A stretch of DNA of 64,000 nucleotides from Mycobacteriales bacterium. Its GTDB lineage: Bacteria > Actinomycetota > Actinomycetes > JAFAQI01. The stretch covers positions 73,543 to 137,542 of the forward strand of contig DASSEX010000051.1 in the NCBI GenBank assembly GCA_035695045.1, given 5' to 3'. The translations under genes and the position numbers were made by a program. The notes under the pieces are model-generated. The model was not told the DNA's origin. It saw only the letters and a list, made by a program, of their open reading frames with translations, and searched no databases. The first letter of the stretch is position 1. The number at the start of each line of letters is the position of its first letter. Positions 1 through 61,173 of the stretch are shown here, one piece after another.

Positions 1-1006
1 GATCGCCACGCGCGCCTACTTCATGGAGAAGGGCGAGGTGCGCTTCTCCGGTCCGACCGAGCAGCTGCTGGAGCGCGACGACGTGCTGCGGTCGGTCTTC
101 CTCGACCGTGCGACGAAGTCGCTGGGCGACGCGAAGGCGAGGACCAAGCGGGTCGCCGACGCCGCGGAGACCGTCACCCGGCCGACCGCGCTCAGCGTGC
201 GCAACCTGAGCCATCACTTCGGCGGCATCTCCGCCGTCAACGATGTCTCGTTCACCGTGCACGAGGGCGAGATCCTCGGCCTGATCGGTCCGAACGGCGC
301 CGGCAAGACGACGATCTTCGACATCATCTCCGGGCACCTGCCGGTGCAGCGCGGTCACATCTTCGTCGGCCAGGCCGACGTCACCGACTGGCCCGCCGAA
401 CGCCGCGCGACCGTCGGGCTGGGGCGCTCGTTCCAGGACGCCAAGATCTTCCCGTCGCTGACGGTGGCCGAGAACATCGCGCTCGGGCTCGAGCGGCACA
501 TCGAGGTCCGGGACCACGTCTCGGCGCTGTTCGGCACGCCCGCGATCCGTGAGTCCGAGGCCGACGTCGCCTACACGGTCGACGACCTCATCGAGCTGAT
601 GGGGCTGGGCGCCTTCCGCGACAAGTTCGTCGCCGAGCTGTCGACGGGTTCCCGCCGCATCGTCGACCTCGCGATGTCCATCGCGCACGACCCGACGGTG
701 CTCCTTCTCGACGAACCGTCGAGCGGTATCGCACAACGCGAGACCGAGGCCTTGGGCCCGCTGCTCAAGCGCATCCAGCAGGAGACCAACTGCGCGATGC
801 TCGTCATCGAGCACGACATGCCGCTCATCACGTCTCTGTCCGACTCGATCGTCGCGCTGGACCTCGGCGCCGTGCTGACACAAGGGCCGCCCGCCGCCGT
901 CCTCGCCGACGAACGCGTGGTGACTGCATACCTGGGCGGCGATCCCGCTGCCATCAAGCGAACCGGAACGACCAGCAAGGCCCGGGGCCAGAAGGTGGGC
1001 GCATGA
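1..1006 (+). CDS. ABC transporter ATP-binding protein, branched-chain amino acid (LivF/LivG)-type, two fused ATPase domains; 5' truncated by the window edge
   Basis: The N-terminal stretch (MEKGEVRFSG...LRSVFL) looks like a LivF-type C-terminus. It is followed by a complete LivG-like domain: Walker A GPNGAGKT, signature LSTG, Walker B LLLDE, H-loop IEHD. Confidence 0.85.
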   Translation, partial: IATRAYFMEKGEVRFSGPTEQLLERDDVLRSVFLDRATKSLGDAKARTKRVADAAETVTRPTALSVRNLSHHFGGISAVNDVSFTVHEGEILGLIGPNGAGKTTIFDIISGHLPVQRGHIFVGQADVTDWPAERRATVGLGRSFQDAKIFPSLTVAENIALGLERHIEVRDHVSALFGTPAIRESEADVAYTVDDLIELMGLGAFRDKFVAELSTGSRRIVDLAMSIAHDPTVLLLDEPSSGIAQRETEALGPLLKRIQQETNCAMLVIEHDMPLITSLSDSIVALDLGAVLTQGPPAAVLADERVVTAYLGGDPAAIKRTGTTSKARGQKVGA

Positions 1007-55608: not shown

Positions 55609-56396
55609 ACCTGTGCTCCGACGGGAGCTGCGTGCCCGGGCAGCGGCTGCGCCGGAAGCTCAACGGTCCCGCAGCCGTAGCGCTCCTCGAACACGTCGGC
55701 CATCCGGCGAAGCATCGTCGCGGCGTCACCCTCGTACGACGACCCGTGCATGATCGCGAGTCGCTGCGGTTCGAGGTCGGCGAGGCGGCGCAGCGTCGCC
55801 GGAACCAGCGGGCCGAGCGAGGTCTGGTGGAACACGTCCTCGGCGAGGATCGCGGCGTCGATGATGTCGTCTCCGACGAGTGCCGGACCGTTGCCGAGCT
55901 GGGTGAGCAGGTCGCCGCAGAACAGCGTGCGCGTCTCCTGCTCGAAGAAGACGTGGGACTCCCAGTTGTGCGGCACGTGCGGGGTCGGCACCTCGACGAC
56001 GCGCCTGGTGAAGCCGGCGCCGCCGAGGTCGATGACCTCACCGTCCTCGAGCGGGCGGGGCGCCCGCGCGGCCTGGTCGTTGAGCGACAACATGCAGCCG
56101 AGAGCGCCGTGCGCGACCTGTGCGTTCGGAGCGGCGGCGAGGAACTCGTTCATCGCGCCGCACTCGTCGGCCTCGACGTGCGAGAACGCAATCCAGCGGA
56201 GCGACTCGACCGGCAGCACCCGCGCCACGGCTTCGCTCACGATCGGGAAGAGCCCGCGCATGCCCGTGTGGTAGAGCAAGGGCTCCTCGGCGTCGACGAG
56301 GAACTGGTTGAACGTGAAGCCGGTTGGCCCGATCTCGGGCACGAACGTCGAGATGCGGTAGATGCGCTCCGCGATCTGGTCAACGTTTGCCTGCAT
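55605..56396 (-). CDS. MBL-fold di-iron protein (FprA N-terminal / ODP-like)
   Basis: FNQFLV, SHVEADECG, PHVPHNWE, FCGDL. Confidence 0.78.
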   Translation of the reverse strand: MQANVDQIAERIYRISTFVPEIGPTGFTFNQFLVDAEEPLLYHTGMRGLFPIVSEAVARVLPVESLRWIAFSHVEADECGAMNEFLAAAPNAQVAHGALGCMLSLNDQAARAPRPLEDGEVIDLGGAGFTRRVVEVPTPHVPHNWESHVFFEQETRTLFCGDLLTQLGNGPALVGDDIIDAAILAEDVFHQTSLGPLVPATLRRLADLEPQRLAIMHGSSYEGDAATMLRRMADVFEERYGCGTVELPAQPLPGHAAPVGAQV

Positions 56397-57081
56397 GTCC
56401 CCTCCTGGGTGTGGTTCGCGGCGTTGCCGCGTTCGACGGCTGGGCGCCGTAATAGGTGACGAACATGTCGACCAGACCGGGTAGCGCCGTCGTGAAGCGG
56501 CCGCTGTCGAATGGCTGGTCGGGTGCGTTGGAGAGCTGTTGGCTGACGACCCCCGAGATGACGACCGTCCAGTCCCGCTGCACGTCGTCGATGGGCACGT
56601 CCGGCCGGATCAGCCCGCGCTGCTGGAGCCGCGCGAGCCTCGCCAGCCCTTCCTCGTAGAGCTCGACGGCCGGCGCGTATGCCTCGTCGCTCGGCTGGAA
56701 GCCGGGCACCGGACGCCAGAACAGCAGCTGCGCATAGGCGGAGTTCTCGACCGCCCACCGGCTCATGAGCCGGCCGGACCGCAGCATCAGGTCCGCGAGG
56801 TCGTCCGACCGCTCGACGTCGTCGCTGTCGTAGATCTCACGCATCGTGGCGAGCAGCTCTCGCCACCCGCGGGCGAACAGGGCGTCGTACAGGGCGTGCT
56901 TCGACGGGAAGTAGACGTAGAGCGACGGGGTCCGGATCCCCATCCGTCGGGCGATCTCACCGAGCGACAGGCCGGCGACGCCCTCCTCGGCCATGATCGC
57001 GACCGCGTGGTCGAGGACCTCCTCGATCGTCTCGAGCCGGCGGCGGTGCCGCCGGTCGAGCGGCGCGGTCTCGGTTGTCAT
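56380..57081 (-). CDS. TetR-family transcriptional regulator
   Basis: HTH LSLGEIARRMG...SLYVYFPSK. Confidence 0.92.
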   Translation of the reverse strand: MTTETAPLDRRHRRRLETIEEVLDHAVAIMAEEGVAGLSLGEIARRMGIRTPSLYVYFPSKHALYDALFARGWRELLATMREIYDSDDVERSDDLADLMLRSGRLMSRWAVENSAYAQLLFWRPVPGFQPSDEAYAPAVELYEEGLARLARLQQRGLIRPDVPIDDVQRDWTVVISGVVSQQLSNAPDQPFDSGRFTTALPGLVDMFVTYYGAQPSNAATPRTTPRRGHAGKR

Positions 57082-57093
57082 GGCCGAGAGCAT

Positions 57094-57231: not shown

Positions 57232-60200
57232 TCAGCCGGGGATCGCGAAGACCGGCTTTCCGTTGGCGCACCAGGGGTTGTCCGGCACGCCCCGGCACGG
57301 GTTGGGCATCGTCTGCTTCGCTCCCGGCCGCGGGCCCGCGCCCTTGTAGTCCTTCGGCTCGGTGATGCCAACCGCGTTGAGCGCCGTCATGATGCTGACG
57401 ATCGGGTCGCCCGGTTGGTAGATGCCGCGGCCGTTCTGGCGCAACGGGTTCTCGTCGCCGCAGGTGTCGAGGTTGGCCAGGCCAGGCGGGTCGACGGTGG
57501 CCGGTTTGGTGTGGCCGCCGGTCTTGTCGACGTTGCCGTCGATGCAGTTCTGGATGCTCGTTCCGTCAAGGCCGATGTCGGCGTCGCCGGGGCCGCCCGC
57601 GTAGCCGACGTGGATGAACGTGTTCTTGAGCACCTGGTTGTTCATCGGCGGAGCGAACAGCCAGTGCAGGATCACACCGTCGTGCATCTCGTTCTTGATG
57701 AGGTTGTCGCGGATGATGTTGTCCGAGCCGCCGGCGATCTCGATGCCGTCACCGACGGGCGCGATGGCGGTGATGCCGGCGCCGGGCACGTCGTGGTCGT
57801 TGTTGTCGTGCACGTAGTTGCCGACGATGTTGACGCCCTGCTGCGGCGGGTCCGGCTCGCTGGTGAGCGTGTTGGGCACGATGCCACTCGCGTTGTGGTC
57901 CCACTCGCTGTCGAGCAGGTAGAGCTCGCCGCCGGCGTTGGTGCCGGAGTAGCCGATGGCGTTCTTCTCCGCCTTCGAGTCGACGATGACGGCGTGGCAG
58001 TCGCGGCAGCCGCCGATGTAGATGCCGCTGTCGGCGTTCCAGGACGCATAGTCGTGCGCGAACGTGCCCGGGAGCTTGCCGCTGTTGGTCGAGTCGTAGG
58101 CGTAGAGGCCGTAGTCACCGTTGTTGTAAGCGGTGAGGTAGTTGCCCCACCAACCGTCCACGCCGGTCCAGTAGAACGCGTTGGCCGAGCCGGTGAGGTA
58201 GTTCTCACCGGTCATGTTCTCGACCCACGTGTTGTTGACGCCCTGCACGTGCACTGCGGAGCCGCCGGTCTTCTTGCCGTCGAAGACGACGGTGTTGCGG
58301 TTCATGCCACGGATGTGCAGGCCGCTCGTCAGGCCATGACCCGGCTGCACGGTGACCGACTCCTTGTAGGTGCCGGGCCAGACCAGGATCCAGTCGCCGT
58401 TGCTCGCGTGCGACACGGCCAGCGACAGCGACCGGTAGTAGCTCGCACCGTGCGGACAACCGCGTGAGCCGTTGCACACGAGCAGCACGTGCGGCTTCGC
58501 CGCCTGGGACGGGACAGCAGCCACGCCCGCTCCGATCATGCCCATGGCGGCAACGAGAGCGACGACCCAGCGAGGCCTGCTCATGTGAACTCCTTTCCAG
58601 GTGCGCACGCGGATGCGTGGCAGACGTACGACGGCAAGCCGCGTGCGCGCGGCGAGCAGGACGAGCGCGGTCTCGACCGCAACTGAAGCGGTGCCCCACG
58701 AGTCGGCCCAGTGGCCTACGTGGTCAGGGATCTGCGGCAGGCCGACGGTGCGGCTGAGGACGTAGCCGATGACGGTGGCGACGGAGGCCGCCGCAACGGT
58801 GCGGTCGAGGACTCTGCTCGGGCCGCGAGCGGCGACGCTGAGTGCTGCCACGCCGGCGCCGACGATGAGCAGGCCGAAGCCTGCTGCGAGGTACGGCGCC
58901 TCGTGCAGCTTGTCGAGCAGGTCGGACGCGTGCGTCACCGCGACTCCGGCGAGGAGCAGGACGAATGCTCCGCGGATCGCGAGGTCACGAACGGACGTCG
59001 TACGGCGGCGGCGCCACAGCAGCACGAGAGCCAGGAGCGGCAGCTCGACCGACAGCACCCAGCCGAGCCGGACGAGCGTGCGGGCCCAGCTCGGGGCAGC
59101 GGCAAGGGGGCGCATCGACGCCATCTGCGTCATCGGGTGCCGAGCCGCGCCGCTCATGTCCATCGACACGGGCGACGACTTCGACGGACCGAGGTGGTAG
59201 CCGGTCGGCAGTGGCAGTCCGGCCTTCTTCACCACGGCGAACTGCGCCATCATGCCGTGGTCCTCGTGGTCGAGCATGTGGCAATGGATCATGAAGACGC
59301 CGGTGTAGTCGGTGAACTTCGCCGCGACCTCGACGCTGTCGCCCGGATCCAGCCGCCAGGTGTCCTCGACCGCCTCGTAGGGCGGAGGTGGCTGCCCGTT
59401 GTAGGCGATCGTCCGCCACTGCTCTTCGTGCAGGTGGATGTAGTGGGTGATCGGTGACAGGTTCTGCAGCAGCCACGTCTGCGTGGATCCGAGTGGCACC
59501 TCGAGGTCGACCCGGCTCGGGTCGTAGCGATGCCCGTTGACCGTCCAGTAGGTGCCGGACGTCGCATCCCCACCGAGACCGAAGGTCCAGACGGCGCTCG
59601 GCGTCGACGGCGGTGAGAGCTTCGGCAGCGGCTCGAGGTGCGCCGGCACCCGCGTCGTGTCCTTGACCCGCCTGGTCACGCGGAACTGCATGATCTGCGC
59701 ATCCGGCGTGCCGATGCCACCCGGGTCGTTGTCGGTGCGCGGAACACTGACCAGCTGGATCTTCTTGCCGAAGTCACGGCCGAAGTCGACGACGACGTCA
59801 GCCCGCTGCGCCGGGCCGAGCAGGATGTCGGTACGTGACACCGGTTTCGGGAGCAGGCCCGCGCCGGTGCCGACCTGCATGAACGGCTGTCCGTTGGACA
59901 GCTTGAAGTCGTAGGACTGGAACCCCGAGCCGTTGAGCAGGCGCAGGCGGTAGCGGTGGGTGCCGACGTCGAAGTGCGGCGCCCAGACACCGTCGACCAG
60001 GATGTGGTCGCCGACCGTGGCGTCACCCGGGGCGGCGTAGGGCCCGGTGAACTTGCTCTGCGTGTTGTCGTAGCCGTCGCCGGTGTGATGGAACGGTTCG
60101 GTGAGCTGGTTGTTCTGGTCGAACGACCGGTCGCTGATCAGCAGCGGGACGTCGTACTGGCCCTTGGGAAGCGGCAGCCGGCGCTCGACGGCGTCCGACG

Positions 60201-61080
60201 TGATGAACATCCCCTGCAGGCCGTTCCAGACGTTGCGGCCGGTCACGTCCATGCGGTGGTCGTGGTAGAAGTCGAACGCCGCCCGCTCGGGCTTGCCGCC
60301 GTCGGTGAGCGGATAGGTGTAGGTCTTCCTCTGACCGGGCCGAATGAGCTGCGAGTCCGGAAGTCCGTCATCCGCCGACGAGTGATGGTCGCCGTGCAGA
60401 TGCACCGTGATCGAGCCGACGGCACTGCCGAGCTGGTTGACGAACGTGACGGTGGTCCGCTGGCCGGTCGGGCGGCGGATCGTGGGGCCGGGATAGCTGC
60501 CGCCGTAGGTCCACATCAGCGTCTTCGGGCCGTGCGGGAGGACACGGATGTCCTGCTCCCGGACCGGGATCGTGATGTGCGAGCCGGTCAGCGTGGGCGG
60601 GAGGCGCAGCGGCGAGTCGAAGGTCGGCTGTGCCGGTTTGCGCCCTCCACCACTGCCCTCGACGATGAGCGTCCCCTGCATGTTGGGGTGGAAGCTGCAG
60701 TAGAAGGAGTAGGTGCCGGGCGCCAGCTTGTCGGCGCCGGCGATCGTCGACGTCGTACCAGGCAGCGCGTTGCCGTTGAACAGCGGCGAGCCGTTGGCGT
60801 CCTTGGCGACCGACGTGACGGTGTGCGCCAGCTCGTCGAGGTTGACGAACGTCAGGGGCATGCCCTGCGTGATGACGACGACCTTCGAGTAGTAGCCGGT
60901 GACCGCACCACCCGGACCGGCGACGACCGCGCCGGTCAGCGGAGTGGGGCCGGTCGGCACGTTGCCCAGGACCATGCCGGGCCGCTGCGGACCCGCGGTC
61001 GCGAGCGGGGCCACGGCGTACGCAGCGGCCGCCAGCACGGAAATGGCAGCCGCCACCACACGTCGCCGGGTCAGGAGCAC
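57232..61080 (-). CDS. Cupredoxin + three-domain multicopper oxidase + membrane domain + right-handed beta-helix (single ORF with an internal in-frame start at 58584)
   Basis: Tat-like TRRR leader; cupredoxin H...YCSFHPNM; MCO motifs HLHG, YHDH, HYIHLH, HCHMLDHEDHGM; TM domain with YVLSRTVGLP; C-terminal parallel beta-helix repeats. Confidence 0.8.
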   Translation of the reverse strand: MLLTRRRVVAAAISVLAAAAYAVAPLATAGPQRPGMVLGNVPTGPTPLTGAVVAGPGGAVTGYYSKVVVITQGMPLTFVNLDELAHTVTSVAKDANGSPLFNGNALPGTTSTIAGADKLAPGTYSFYCSFHPNMQGTLIVEGSGGGRKPAQPTFDSPLRLPPTLTGSHITIPVREQDIRVLPHGPKTLMWTYGGSYPGPTIRRPTGQRTTVTFVNQLGSAVGSITVHLHGDHHSSADDGLPDSQLIRPGQRKTYTYPLTDGGKPERAAFDFYHDHRMDVTGRNVWNGLQGMFITSDAVERRLPLPKGQYDVPLLISDRSFDQNNQLTEPFHHTGDGYDNTQSKFTGPYAAPGDATVGDHILVDGVWAPHFDVGTHRYRLRLLNGSGFQSYDFKLSNGQPFMQVGTGAGLLPKPVSRTDILLGPAQRADVVVDFGRDFGKKIQLVSVPRTDNDPGGIGTPDAQIMQFRVTRRVKDTTRVPAHLEPLPKLSPPSTPSAVWTFGLGGDATSGTYWTVNGHRYDPSRVDLEVPLGSTQTWLLQNLSPITHYIHLHEEQWRTIAYNGQPPPPYEAVEDTWRLDPGDSVEVAAKFTDYTGVFMIHCHMLDHEDHGMMAQFAVVKKAGLPLPTGYHLGPSKSSPVSMDMSGAARHPMTQMASMRPLAAAPSWARTLVRLGWVLSVELPLLALVLLWRRRRTTSVRDLAIRGAFVLLLAGVAVTHASDLLDKLHEAPYLAAGFGLLIVGAGVAALSVAARGPSRVLDRTVAAASVATVIGYVLSRTVGLPQIPDHVGHWADSWGTASVAVETALVLLAARTRLAVVRLPRIRVRTWKGVHMSRPRWVVALVAAMGMIGAGVAAVPSQAAKPHVLLVCNGSRGCPHGASYYRSLSLAVSHASNGDWILVWPGTYKESVTVQPGHGLTSGLHIRGMNRNTVVFDGKKTGGSAVHVQGVNNTWVENMTGENYLTGSANAFYWTGVDGWWGNYLTAYNNGDYGLYAYDSTNSGKLPGTFAHDYASWNADSGIYIGGCRDCHAVIVDSKAEKNAIGYSGTNAGGELYLLDSEWDHNASGIVPNTLTSEPDPPQQGVNIVGNYVHDNNDHDVPGAGITAIAPVGDGIEIAGGSDNIIRDNLIKNEMHDGVILHWLFAPPMNNQVLKNTFIHVGYAGGPGDADIGLDGTSIQNCIDGNVDKTGGHTKPATVDPPGLANLDTCGDENPLRQNGRGIYQPGDPIVSIMTALNAVGITEPKDYKGAGPRPGAKQTMPNPCRGVPDNPWCANGKPVFAIPG

Positions 61081-61173
61081 CCTTCTGGGTTCGACGGCAA
61101 CCGGCGATGATCCTTCCGGAGCAGGCGCTTGACCGGCTCGACCCGCCTACGGCCGGCTCGACCGCCCATCGAG

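Follow-up and report, generated by a model that had tools for sequence, protein, structure and literature searches.

Two adjacent genes for a cupredoxin-multicopper oxidase and a beta-helix protein fused into one open reading frame in uncultured actinobacteria, with the start site of the second gene retained

The open reading frame described here raises the question of whether two genes for exported proteins have truly become one, and, if they have, whether one protein or two is made from it. It lies in a window of 64,000 nucleotides, which is the whole stretch of DNA that was analysed and comes from an uncultured soil actinobacterium. An earlier note on this DNA had read a single open frame of 1282 codons, and the frame is present, on the minus strand (Table 1). 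It encodes, in order, a signal peptide, a cupredoxin, a CotA-type multicopper oxidase (MCO), a Met-rich linker, five transmembrane (TM) helices, a loop with a Shine-Dalgarno sequence (SD) and an ATG, a second signal peptide and a beta-helix. Its neighbours in the window are a TetR regulator (56380-57093) and an acyl-CoA synthetase, and no conserved neighbour genes were found around the loci of its relatives, where the flanking genes are unrelated. The SD at the N-terminal start of the whole gene is poor, so the expression signals in the host may depart from the textbook.

Table 1. Features of the fused gene, in the order of the protein.
Feature	Residues	Position	Strand	Basis
Whole fused ORF, GTG start	1282 codons + stop TGA (57232-57234)	57232..61080	minus	
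N-terminal export signal (VLLTRRRVV...APLATA)	1-29	60994..61080	minus	read from sequence
Extra N-terminal cupredoxin	63-141	60658..60894	minus	PF13473
Three-domain MCO core, CotA/bilirubin-oxidase type	159-620	59221..60606	minus	Pfam, PDB matches, ligands
Met/His-rich linker	621-663	59092..59220	minus	read from sequence, homologue alignment
TM1, then cytoplasmic RRRR	~664-690	59011..59091	minus	hydropathy, positive-inside count, AF2
Four-helix module TM2-5	~697-816	58633..58992	minus	invariants, AF2
Cytoplasmic junction loop	817-832	58585..58632	minus	alignment, charge count, AF2
Retained Shine-Dalgarno GAAAGGAG, in frame (W)KGV = AAA-GGA-GTT		58590..58597	minus	junction DNA comparison
Retained start ATG of former beta-helix gene	Met833	58582..58584	minus	fused + two-gene comparison
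Signal peptide of former beta-helix gene (...VPSQA↓A)	833-860	58501..58584	minus	alignment, hydropathy
Mature right-handed beta-helix	861-1282	57235..58500	minus	PF13229, AF2, Foldseek

The N-terminal half reads as an exported copper oxidase. The RRR run, the h-region and the A-x-A of the export signal are conserved among the homologues. This leader had been called Tat-like, for which the arginine run is the sole basis; the run (T-R-R-R-V-V) is there, but the NCBIfam matches at E<=1 included no twin-arginine signal model, and the leader may be of the Sec or of the Tat type. Behind it, Cupredoxin_1 (PF13473) matched residues 68-140 with 28.6-30.3 bits against a cutoff of 27, and the proposed extra type-1 site, H86...C128-x2-H131-x2-M134, was found again, with ligands at least 90% conserved in 23 homologues. 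The domain falls below the NCBIfam equivalogs for amicyanin (19 vs 110) and plastocyanin (13.6 vs 87.9). In the oxidase the three Pfam domains were all recognised, Cu-oxidase_3 at residues 183-296 (55.6-59.7 bits, cutoff 21), Cu-oxidase at 375-433 (22.9-24.2 bits, cutoff 21) and Cu-oxidase_2 at 507-618 (75.4-76.8 bits, cutoff 20.4), and the core matched the PDB entries 7z5p, 8z59 and 1gsk at E values of 1e-57 to 1e-60. The four copper motifs reported before (H227-x-H229, H273-x-H275, H546-x2-H549-x-H551 and H599-C-H601-x3-H605-x4-M610) are invariant in 23 sequences. The oxidase is far under the NCBIfam equivalog cutoffs, with 184-186 bits as compared to 525 for CueO and 950 for PhsA, and 106 against 581 for FtsP. 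The Met/His-rich linker that follows does contain the stretch SMDMSGAARHPMTQMASM; such a linker is present only in relatives that have a TM anchor (L027, P0026-29), and the two-gene forms with no TM helix are without it.

The membrane part had been described as roughly five helices, and hydropathy and the AlphaFold model agree on this number at residues ~664-816, a sixth helix being the "signal peptide". TM1-5 are confidently modelled (pLDDT 88-97); neither the junction loop (pLDDT <55) nor the signal helix packs onto the TM bundle (pLDDT 40-58 for the two). Loops rich in K/R follow TM1 (5) and TM5 (7), and acidic/His loops follow TM2 and TM4. Two relatives, L027 and G022, have TM1 as their sole helix. 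TM2-5 are a module of their own, with the family-invariant residues H717, S776-R777, G780-L781-P782, G789, W791 and E803, and this module is homologous to free-standing actinobacterial membrane proteins of ~137 aa, whose gene contexts were uninformative. No Pfam or NCBIfam family matched it, and it belongs to no described family. An identity as DoxX or DoxX_3 was considered and rejected; the module in the window has no Pfam match, and the best DoxX match among 10 stand-alone homologues was DoxX_3 with E 0.17 and 12.9 bits as compared to 25. A possibly Tat-exported N-terminal domain and downstream Sec-type helices in one protein make a topologically demanding combination.

How the two halves came together can be seen from the relatives. 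In sister lineages the cupredoxin-MCO and the secreted beta-helix are two translationally coupled genes, and the start of the second overlaps the stop of the first (GTGA/ATGA), with the SD inside the last MCO codons (L024, L025, L026, L028, L030, L031, L032, L035 and L037). The MCO of the two-gene lineages has 0, 1 or 5 C-terminal TM helices; five are found together with a separate beta-helix gene in L141, L143 and L069, and one in L027 and G022. Such two-gene operons of Frankiales MAGs were not found in the literature searched. The separate, coupled beta-helix gene begins at the codon homologous to Met833, ATG or GTG, which bears out the suggestion that the internal SD, ATG and signal peptide are the start of a second gene. 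Not all homologues are separate genes: at least 17 fused full-length proteins (P0003-P0019) of 1266-1316 aa and 70-85% identity were found. The genomes G001, G005, G009 and G015 have open frames of 1227-1335 aa. The frame also stays open in 12 independent DNAs that cover the junction; they come from different projects and belong to MAGs of Frankiales/Mycobacteriales or to soil metagenomes. These comparisons show that the fusion of the two genes is genuine and has been stable in the evolution of these uncultured actinobacteria of the Frankiales/Mycobacteriales.

The fusion amounts to a change of phase. The frame of the MCO with five TM helices is in phase with the old start, and therefore the overlapping TGA is not read and a single ORF of 1282 aa results. 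Stop loss at the TGG codon upstream of the SD, which had been proposed, does not explain it; two fused relatives have ATC (Ile) there, and the stop of the two-gene forms is the TGA that overlaps the start, at another place than the TGG. In the tree the GTGA two-gene clade (support 100/100) is apart from the fused group, and the two-gene L024 is inside the fused group (93/90), which implies that the old start, still in place, could be put back to use when the two frames came apart.

The junction itself has the sequence reported earlier: TGG at 58599-58597, GAAAGGAG at 58597-58590, five bases, and then the in-frame ATG at 58584-58582, which opens MSRPRWVVALVAAMGMIGAGVAAVPSQA. All 13 junction DNAs of fused genes have ATG at the start, and all 17 fused proteins have M there. 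The SD (A[AG][AG]GGAG) and its spacing of 5-6 nt to the ATG are conserved at the nucleotide level in the fused clade, while the synonymous sites beside SD and ATG vary freely. The codons that make up the SD are rare ones, AAA, AAG or AGA, then GGA, and mostly GTT (9/12). The junction Gly is GGA in 12/12, which are not twelve independent events because sequences in one clade share ancestry, and where the listed junctions have Arg it is always AGA (7/7). In the genome GGA makes up 8-9% of the Gly codons, AGA 1.5-2% of those for Arg, AAA 5-11% for Lys and GTT 5-6% for Val. Across nine fused genes Gly is invariant in 49 columns; these use a mean of 2.45 codons per column, and G830 is the only one of them with GGA throughout. 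Furthermore, in L067 the Gly codon of the junction is gone and the DNA still reads TGGAGAG. The AxA cleavage site is conserved in the fused clade, and the P-S-x-A-A region is kept in both fused and two-gene forms. The pattern RRGGAG-N5-ATG is rare and occurs only three times in the 64-kb window, as compared to 1.07 expected from shuffles, and the other two occurrences are ORF starts. Taken as a pattern in the DNA, this conservation indicates that both the internal SD, which has a functional spacing, and the start codon are under selection in the fused clade.

As the ribosome-binding site, start and signal peptide of the second gene are kept, both proteins are probably still made. It is thus likely, as far as can be judged from the sequences, that the fused gene gives a polytopic fusion, with the oxidase and the beta-helix on the outside, and in addition, by way of the internal start, a beta-helix that is free. 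The earlier note had offered a fusion plus a free secreted beta-helix as one of its alternatives, and this agrees with the fact that SD and ATG are conserved at the nucleotide level throughout the fused clade. The full-length product would be a membrane protein with six spans and with the N-terminal oxidase and the C-terminal beta-helix both extracellular. The old signal peptide may act as TM6 or as a cleavable internal signal; signal peptidase probably cleaves after SQA, before the next A, and would release the beta-helix. Ribosomes probably also initiate at the internal SD-ATG, giving a free beta-helix pre-protein. A single ORF would in this manner still yield what the former operon did, and at the same time tether the partners to each other at the membrane.

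An unlikely alternative is that nothing but the long polytopic protein is made, with no internal initiation, and that W/I-K/R-G-V-x-M is kept for reasons of the protein, for example the orientation of TM6. The junction motif is indeed conserved as amino acids too. At the junctions the local dip in GC and the weakness of the mRNA structure are only modest, and both are missing from the copy in the window, which also speaks for a single product. A constraint on the protein, however, leaves the exclusive use of rare codons unexplained, and synonymous sites elsewhere are saturated. It does not account for L067, which has lost the Gly residue and keeps GGAG in its DNA, nor for L024, which starts a separate gene at the same site from within the fused group. 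The rest of the junction loop, save its last five codons, varies in both sequence and length.

In the beta-helix part PF13229 (Beta_helix) matched residues 973-1155 with 39-40 bits as compared to 25.9, and the AF2 model (pLDDT 91.2, pTM 0.89) shows stacked coils of three strands. A CxxC (GGCRDC) and a C-terminal Cys pair are conserved. It is doubtful that the domain loads the oxidase as a copper-maturation factor of the NosD type, although a copper enzyme is its obligatory partner and the two are translationally coupled, the CxxC is kept, and the mature N-termini of relatives are His-rich (HRPVTHHHKAHHRHR in G003, for example). The description as "NosD-like" found no support. The family model TIGR04247, whose cutoff is 300 bits, gave 12.5-14.1. 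The top 50 Foldseek matches in the PDB do not include NosD; they are polysaccharide lyases, epimerases and tailspikes, with a probability of 1.0 to beta-helix enzymes and TM-scores all <0.5. No nosZ, nosF or nosY genes were found near the locus or the loci of relatives, and the wider beta-helix family, 1215 cluster representatives, is mostly without an adjacent CotA-type MCO.

As a unit the fused parts would be a copper oxidase that acts outside the cytoplasm and has the beta-helix as its obligatory partner. We slightly favour copper handling or cuprous oxidation as the role of the oxidase, because of the Met-rich linker, the His-rich beta-helix N-termini of relatives and the conserved His/Asp/Glu that the membrane module has on its outer face, a guess based only on composition and a small number of conserved residues. 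The proposal of an uncharacterised surface copper system is plausible on this reading of the sequence. A more far-reaching version is rather improbable, namely that the frame is an operon in one ORF, a pre-protein with two differently exported enzymes that are cleaved apart, combined with a new membrane relay for copper or electrons. The copper oxidase would be exported Tat-like and the beta-helix via Sec, signal peptidase would split the pre-protein at the retained signal, and initiation at the conserved internal start would add to the supply of free partner. The relay of copper or electrons to the outward-facing oxidase would be made up of the cupredoxin, the Met-rich linker and the four-TM module. 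The locus is a tidy gene fusion and no new kind of biology.

Two further explanations concern the DNA of the junction. It is very unlikely that the SD-like sequence is an intragenic element for pausing or for the timing of membrane insertion after TM5, and no start site. Such an element would slow the ribosome so that the membrane module is inserted before the following signal comes out. Its conservation at the nucleotide level would suit this, and so would its place, which is precisely after TM5 and before the hydrophobic helix that follows, but pausing needs no ATG at a fixed spacing of 5-6 nt, and the same SD and start drive separate genes in relatives. SD-mediated pausing within coding regions is itself disputed. 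An assembly or sequencing artefact that joined two genes because a base or a stop around 58590-58600 was missed, as the earlier note had allowed, is extremely unlikely: close relatives do have two genes and the nanopore MAG L036/G008 has frameshifts in the same gene, but the in-phase junction recurs in the 12 independently assembled DNAs and in 17 proteins that differ by 15-30%, the frame stays open across a variable loop with lineage-specific indels, and no two-gene relative has a stop at the TGG position.

Compared with the CotA, bilirubin oxidase and CueO type of MCO (1gsk, 7z5p, 8z59, 1kv7), the oxidase has the three cupredoxin-fold domains, the four copper motifs and the axial Met of the T1 site in common, and it resembles CueO in having a Met-rich segment. 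It differs from them by the additional type-1 cupredoxin at its N-terminus, by the Met-rich linker with a five-TM module that follows C-terminally, and by the fused beta-helix. The two-gene Frankiales operons (L025-L037, L141, L143) encode orthologous proteins and are alike in SD, start, signal peptide and order; they give two polypeptides from an overlapping start and stop, whereas the fused gene is in phase and one ORF. As in other "Rosetta-stone" fusions, the orthologous parts are adjacent but separate genes in related genomes, with a homologous junction. NosD, a periplasmic protein of N2O-reductase maturation, is likewise an exported right-handed beta-helix tied genetically to a copper enzyme, but here there is no ABC partner (NosFY) and no NosZ, and the beta-helix falls short of the family model.

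IF2 alpha/beta, ClpB and the long and short CheA are in-frame proteoforms from internal starts. They too have an SD and a start inside the ORF that give a shorter C-terminal protein beside the full-length one, but the internal start described here was inherited from a formerly separate gene, and its use is inferred. Since this start opens a signal peptide, its product and the full-length one would not be tethered to the membrane in the same way. Bacterial proteoforms of this kind have been reviewed (PMC13515050). Joining of a cofactor-bearing exported domain to membrane helices is, on the other hand, shared with two other proteins. The Streptomyces Rieske protein Sco2149 is polytopic and needs both Sec and Tat, and hephaestin is a membrane-anchored MCO. 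The fused protein differs from both in its reversed order, an exported domain, then 5-6 helices and then a second exported domain, and in its dependence on Tat, which is putative.

The minus strand of the window holds a single open frame (57232..61080) of 1282 codons with a GTG start. The open frame, domains, copper motifs and junction features described in the earlier note were all borne out by Pfam and by direct reading of the sequence, and the copper ligands of the type-1 site and of the multicopper oxidase (MCO) are invariant or near-invariant across 23 homologues. At the frame's own start (window 61081-61116, minus) there is no well-spaced Shine-Dalgarno (SD) sequence; an AGAAGG abuts the GTG, and a GGAAGGA is found 30 nt upstream of it. 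The gene caller of the database record placed the start 8 codons further in, by which the RRR n-region would be lost, and the N-terminus given here for the long ORF is a putative one.

Features of the fused open frame, its internal start, and the related two-gene loci
Feature	Position or members	Strand	Basis or remark
Cupredoxin_1	residues 68-140		Pfam
Three multicopper-oxidase domains	residues 183-296, 375-433, 507-618		Pfam
Beta_helix, right-handed	residues 973-1155		Pfam
Extra type-1 copper site	H86...C128-x2-H131-x2-M134		ligands read from sequence
Four MCO copper motifs	H227xH229, H273xH275, H546xxH549xH551, H599-C-H601xxxH605xxxxM610		read from sequence
SD GAAAGGAG	58597-58590	minus	followed by five bases, then in-frame ATG
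Internal ATG	58584-58582	minus	opens MSRPRWVVALVAAMGMIGAGVAAVPSQA
Two-gene loci, cupredoxin-MCO without 5-TM module	L024, L025, L026, L028, L030, L031, L032, L035, L037		nine loci

The earlier note had raised a sequencing error as a cause of the fusion, and the relatives speak against this. A search of a large protein collection gave at least 17 full-length homologues (1266-1316 aa, 70-85% identity, same Pfam set), whose sources are metagenomes and MAGs from JGI, ENA and NCBI with the labels Mycobacteriales, Frankiales or Frankiaceae, and searches of whole genomes turned up four related ones with an open frame of 1227-1335 aa. The frame is open in 12 independent junction DNAs, through a loop that varies in both sequence and length, so an error of sequencing or assembly in the window can for practical purposes be regarded as excluded. 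One orthologue (L036, G008:C10, from the nanopore MAG MFD01721.bin.2.61; protein P0025) is frameshifted in both its MCO and beta-helix parts, which may reflect long-read error or a pseudogene.

Other Frankiales MAGs encode both proteins in two separate genes. At the nine loci where the MCO lacks the five-helix (5-TM) module, it stops no more than about 40-70 codons past the HCH motif, with an end like ...AAGGAGAnCnnGTGA, the SD lies inside the last MCO codons, and the TGA stop shares bases with the beta-helix gene's GTG or ATG. At locus L027 and in genome G022 the MCO carries a Met-rich linker and one TM helix, followed by a stop, a short gap and the beta-helix gene. The full 5-TM module is found on the MCO of L141, L143 (genome G003) and L069, where stop and beta-helix start overlap in a GTGA. 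The form in the window differs from this last type in phase only, and the TGA of its 'ATGA' goes unread because the MCO-5TM frame enters the old start codon in frame. The TGG codon before the SD had been proposed as the former stop, an idea that finds no support: two of the fused relatives read ATC here, and none of the two-gene relatives has a stop at that position. Taken together, comparison of the genes shows a fusion that is real, conserved and descended from a translationally coupled pair.

In the maximum-likelihood tree of the beta-helix, the GTGA two-gene sequences form one clade (100/100) and the fused sequences the other group, with the two-gene locus L024 sitting among the latter (93/90). 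From this tree, the sole basis of the claim, L024 looks like a secondary separation from the fused state. The pairwise DNA alignment is fragmented and showed no one clean deletion that would derive L024 from a fused ancestor.

Several loci have peculiarities of their own. On the metagenome contig Ga0153915_10054064 (L074:275-3053) the MCO gene is followed by a tandem pair of beta-helix genes, 460 and 458 aa long, and both have an SD, a GTG start and a signal peptide of their own. At L143 (G003:C140) and L141:8550-9947 the mature beta-helix opens with a His-rich tail before the conserved VLLVCNG (SPVRHRPVTHHHKAHHRHR; SPTRHHRSGHR), which suggests a metal-binding N-terminus. Only at L141 does a DUF6351 gene follow the beta-helix gene, and near this cluster of MCO-5TM, beta-helix and DUF6351 genes lies a gene for a DnaB helicase that carries intein and LAGLIDADG domains (L141:12403-14553). 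In the called 1414-aa gene at L140:1-4093, CTP synthase (CTP_synth_N, GATase) shares one product with a Phage_integrase domain, an odd combination that is possibly a mis-called or frameshift-joined gene.

The junction DNA reads ACC TGG AAA GGA GTT CAC ATG AGC AGG, and the frame across it encodes ...RTWKGVHMSRPR... Over both strands of the 64-kb window, RRGGAG-N5-ATG has just three occurrences, and the two besides the junction lie at ORF starts. Among the fused sequences the loop from TM5 to the signal helix is variable apart from its final five codons and the Met, with the DNA consensus (TGG or ATC) A[AG][AG] GGA G[TC][TC] NNN ATG. These codons are rare in this genome: GGA makes up 8-9% of Gly, AGA 1.5-2% of Arg, AAA 5-11% of Lys and GTT 5-6% of Val codons. 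The junction Gly is GGA in 12/12, and the Arg is AGA in all seven listed junctions that have Arg there. When nine fused genes were aligned across their last ~680 codons, the 49 invariant Gly columns used a mean of 2.45 different codons each, and GGA was used throughout only at G830, at the junction. In L067 the Gly codon is gone and the DNA before the ATG still reads TGGAGAG. The Pro, Arg and Ala codons immediately downstream vary synonymously; retention of rare codons beside such sites implies that the constraint acts on the nucleotides of the SD and start codon and not on the amino acids. The P-S-x-A-A cleavage region of the signal peptide is conserved in fused and two-gene forms alike. The former SD and ATG, and the signal peptide with them, are thus shown to be retained under constraint. 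Local GC and predicted mRNA folding gave a modest start-site signature in four relatives and none in the window's copy; this support is weak and inconsistent, and we do not use it. Two fused sequences have extra residues directly behind the internal Met, which is itself conserved: P0017 has 18, rich in Arg/Ser, and L070:107-1483 has 4 together with a second ATG. These insertions extend the putative signal peptide's n-region and leave SD and ATG intact.

By hydropathy and charge counts the fused product has six spans, with cytoplasmic loops after TM1 (5 K/R) and TM5 (7 K/R) and outward loops after TM2 (DLLDKLHE) and TM4 (PDHVGHWADSW). As the N-terminal oxidase is exported, six spans place the beta-helix outside too. 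A structure prediction, as proposed in the earlier note, gives five confident helices. In the AlphaFold2 model, which covers residues 631-1282, TM1-5 have a pLDDT of 88-97 and the junction loop and signal helix only 40-58, which implies that the latter are not packed into the bundle. This fits a signal helix that could serve as signal or anchor and be cleaved.

The TM2-5 part is homologous to free-standing membrane proteins of ~137 aa in Streptomyces, Mycobacterium and others, with which it shares invariant H717, S776-R777, G780-L781-P782, G789, W791 and E803. Neither the module nor 10 stand-alone homologues gave anything above noise against Pfam and NCBIfam, and the genomic contexts of three of the homologues were uninformative; we flag this as a four-helix (4-TM) membrane family without annotation. 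Stand-alone relatives, in open frames of about 140-245 aa, also occur in the genome that holds the window and in most related genomes (e.g. G000:C28:48823-49089 and small ORFs in G001, G004 and G010-G013); the alignment of the G000 copy runs through two TGA codons.

Most likely, ribosomes that begin at the first start make a six-span protein whose cupredoxin-MCO and beta-helix both lie outside. Signal peptidase would then probably cut after SQA (SQA/A), and ribosomes would probably initiate additionally at the internal SD-ATG. Either route would yield a free beta-helix, by which the products of the operon are kept while their synthesis and location become linked. As to function, we lean slightly towards copper handling or cuprous oxidation and away from the oxidation of phenolics or polymers, because the Met-rich linker occurs only alongside the membrane anchor, the mature beta-helix N-termini are His-rich in relatives (G003), and the membrane module has conserved His/Asp/Glu on its outward side. 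No conserved neighbours of the MCO/beta-helix unit that hint at a substrate were found; those seen (UvrA-like, BipA, GH3, NicO, P450) vary between loci, and the downstream TetR gene (56380-57093) recurs in the same genus only.

Each element, be it MCO, cupredoxin, beta-helix, gene fusion or internal start, is of a known kind, and a full-text literature search turned up no account of the architecture, nor of an MCO/beta-helix partnership. Four stages live on among related genomes, from coupled genes through one anchor helix and the 5-TM module to in-frame fusion, and with one apparent reversal they make a clean natural series on the fusion of translationally coupled genes and the fate of inner starts. 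Retention of the SD, the ATG and a cleavable signal peptide at the nucleotide level predicts dual output from one ORF, and the value of the locus lies in this testable prediction together with the graded series. In annotation the gene should be left as one and not 'corrected' to a pair, and the homologues' labels 'spore coat protein A / manganese oxidase' are uninformative. The pairing of a cupredoxin-bearing CotA-type oxidase with a beta-helix is conserved and unstudied in abundant uncultured soil Actinomycetota.

The beta-helix belongs to a large secreted family, with 1215 cluster representatives at E<=1e-3. HMM searches of the flanks of about 90 distant paralogue loci detected no CotA-type MCO, which rules out a general MCO linkage of the family and makes the MCO-linked proteins one subclade. 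In three Solirubrobacterales MAGs (L051, L052, L054) distant paralogues of about 30% identity form tandem pairs, and no CotA-type MCO lies close to them. The NosD-like character first suggested for the beta-helix was not upheld, as it scores 12-14 bits on the NosD model against a cutoff of 300; NosD is not among its 50 best structural hits. The model of the beta-helix is confident (pLDDT 91.2, pTM 0.89) and has no more than a generic likeness to polysaccharide lyases and epimerases (RbmB, AlgE, PL6/PL9; TM-scores <0.5), and its sequence likeness to pectin methylesterases is confined to the N-terminal cap. The MCO core is of the CotA/bilirubin-oxidase type (PDB 7z5p, 8z59 and 1gsk, E 1e-57 to 1e-60), and its scores stay far under the cutoffs of the NCBIfam equivalogs PhsA, CueO and FtsP.
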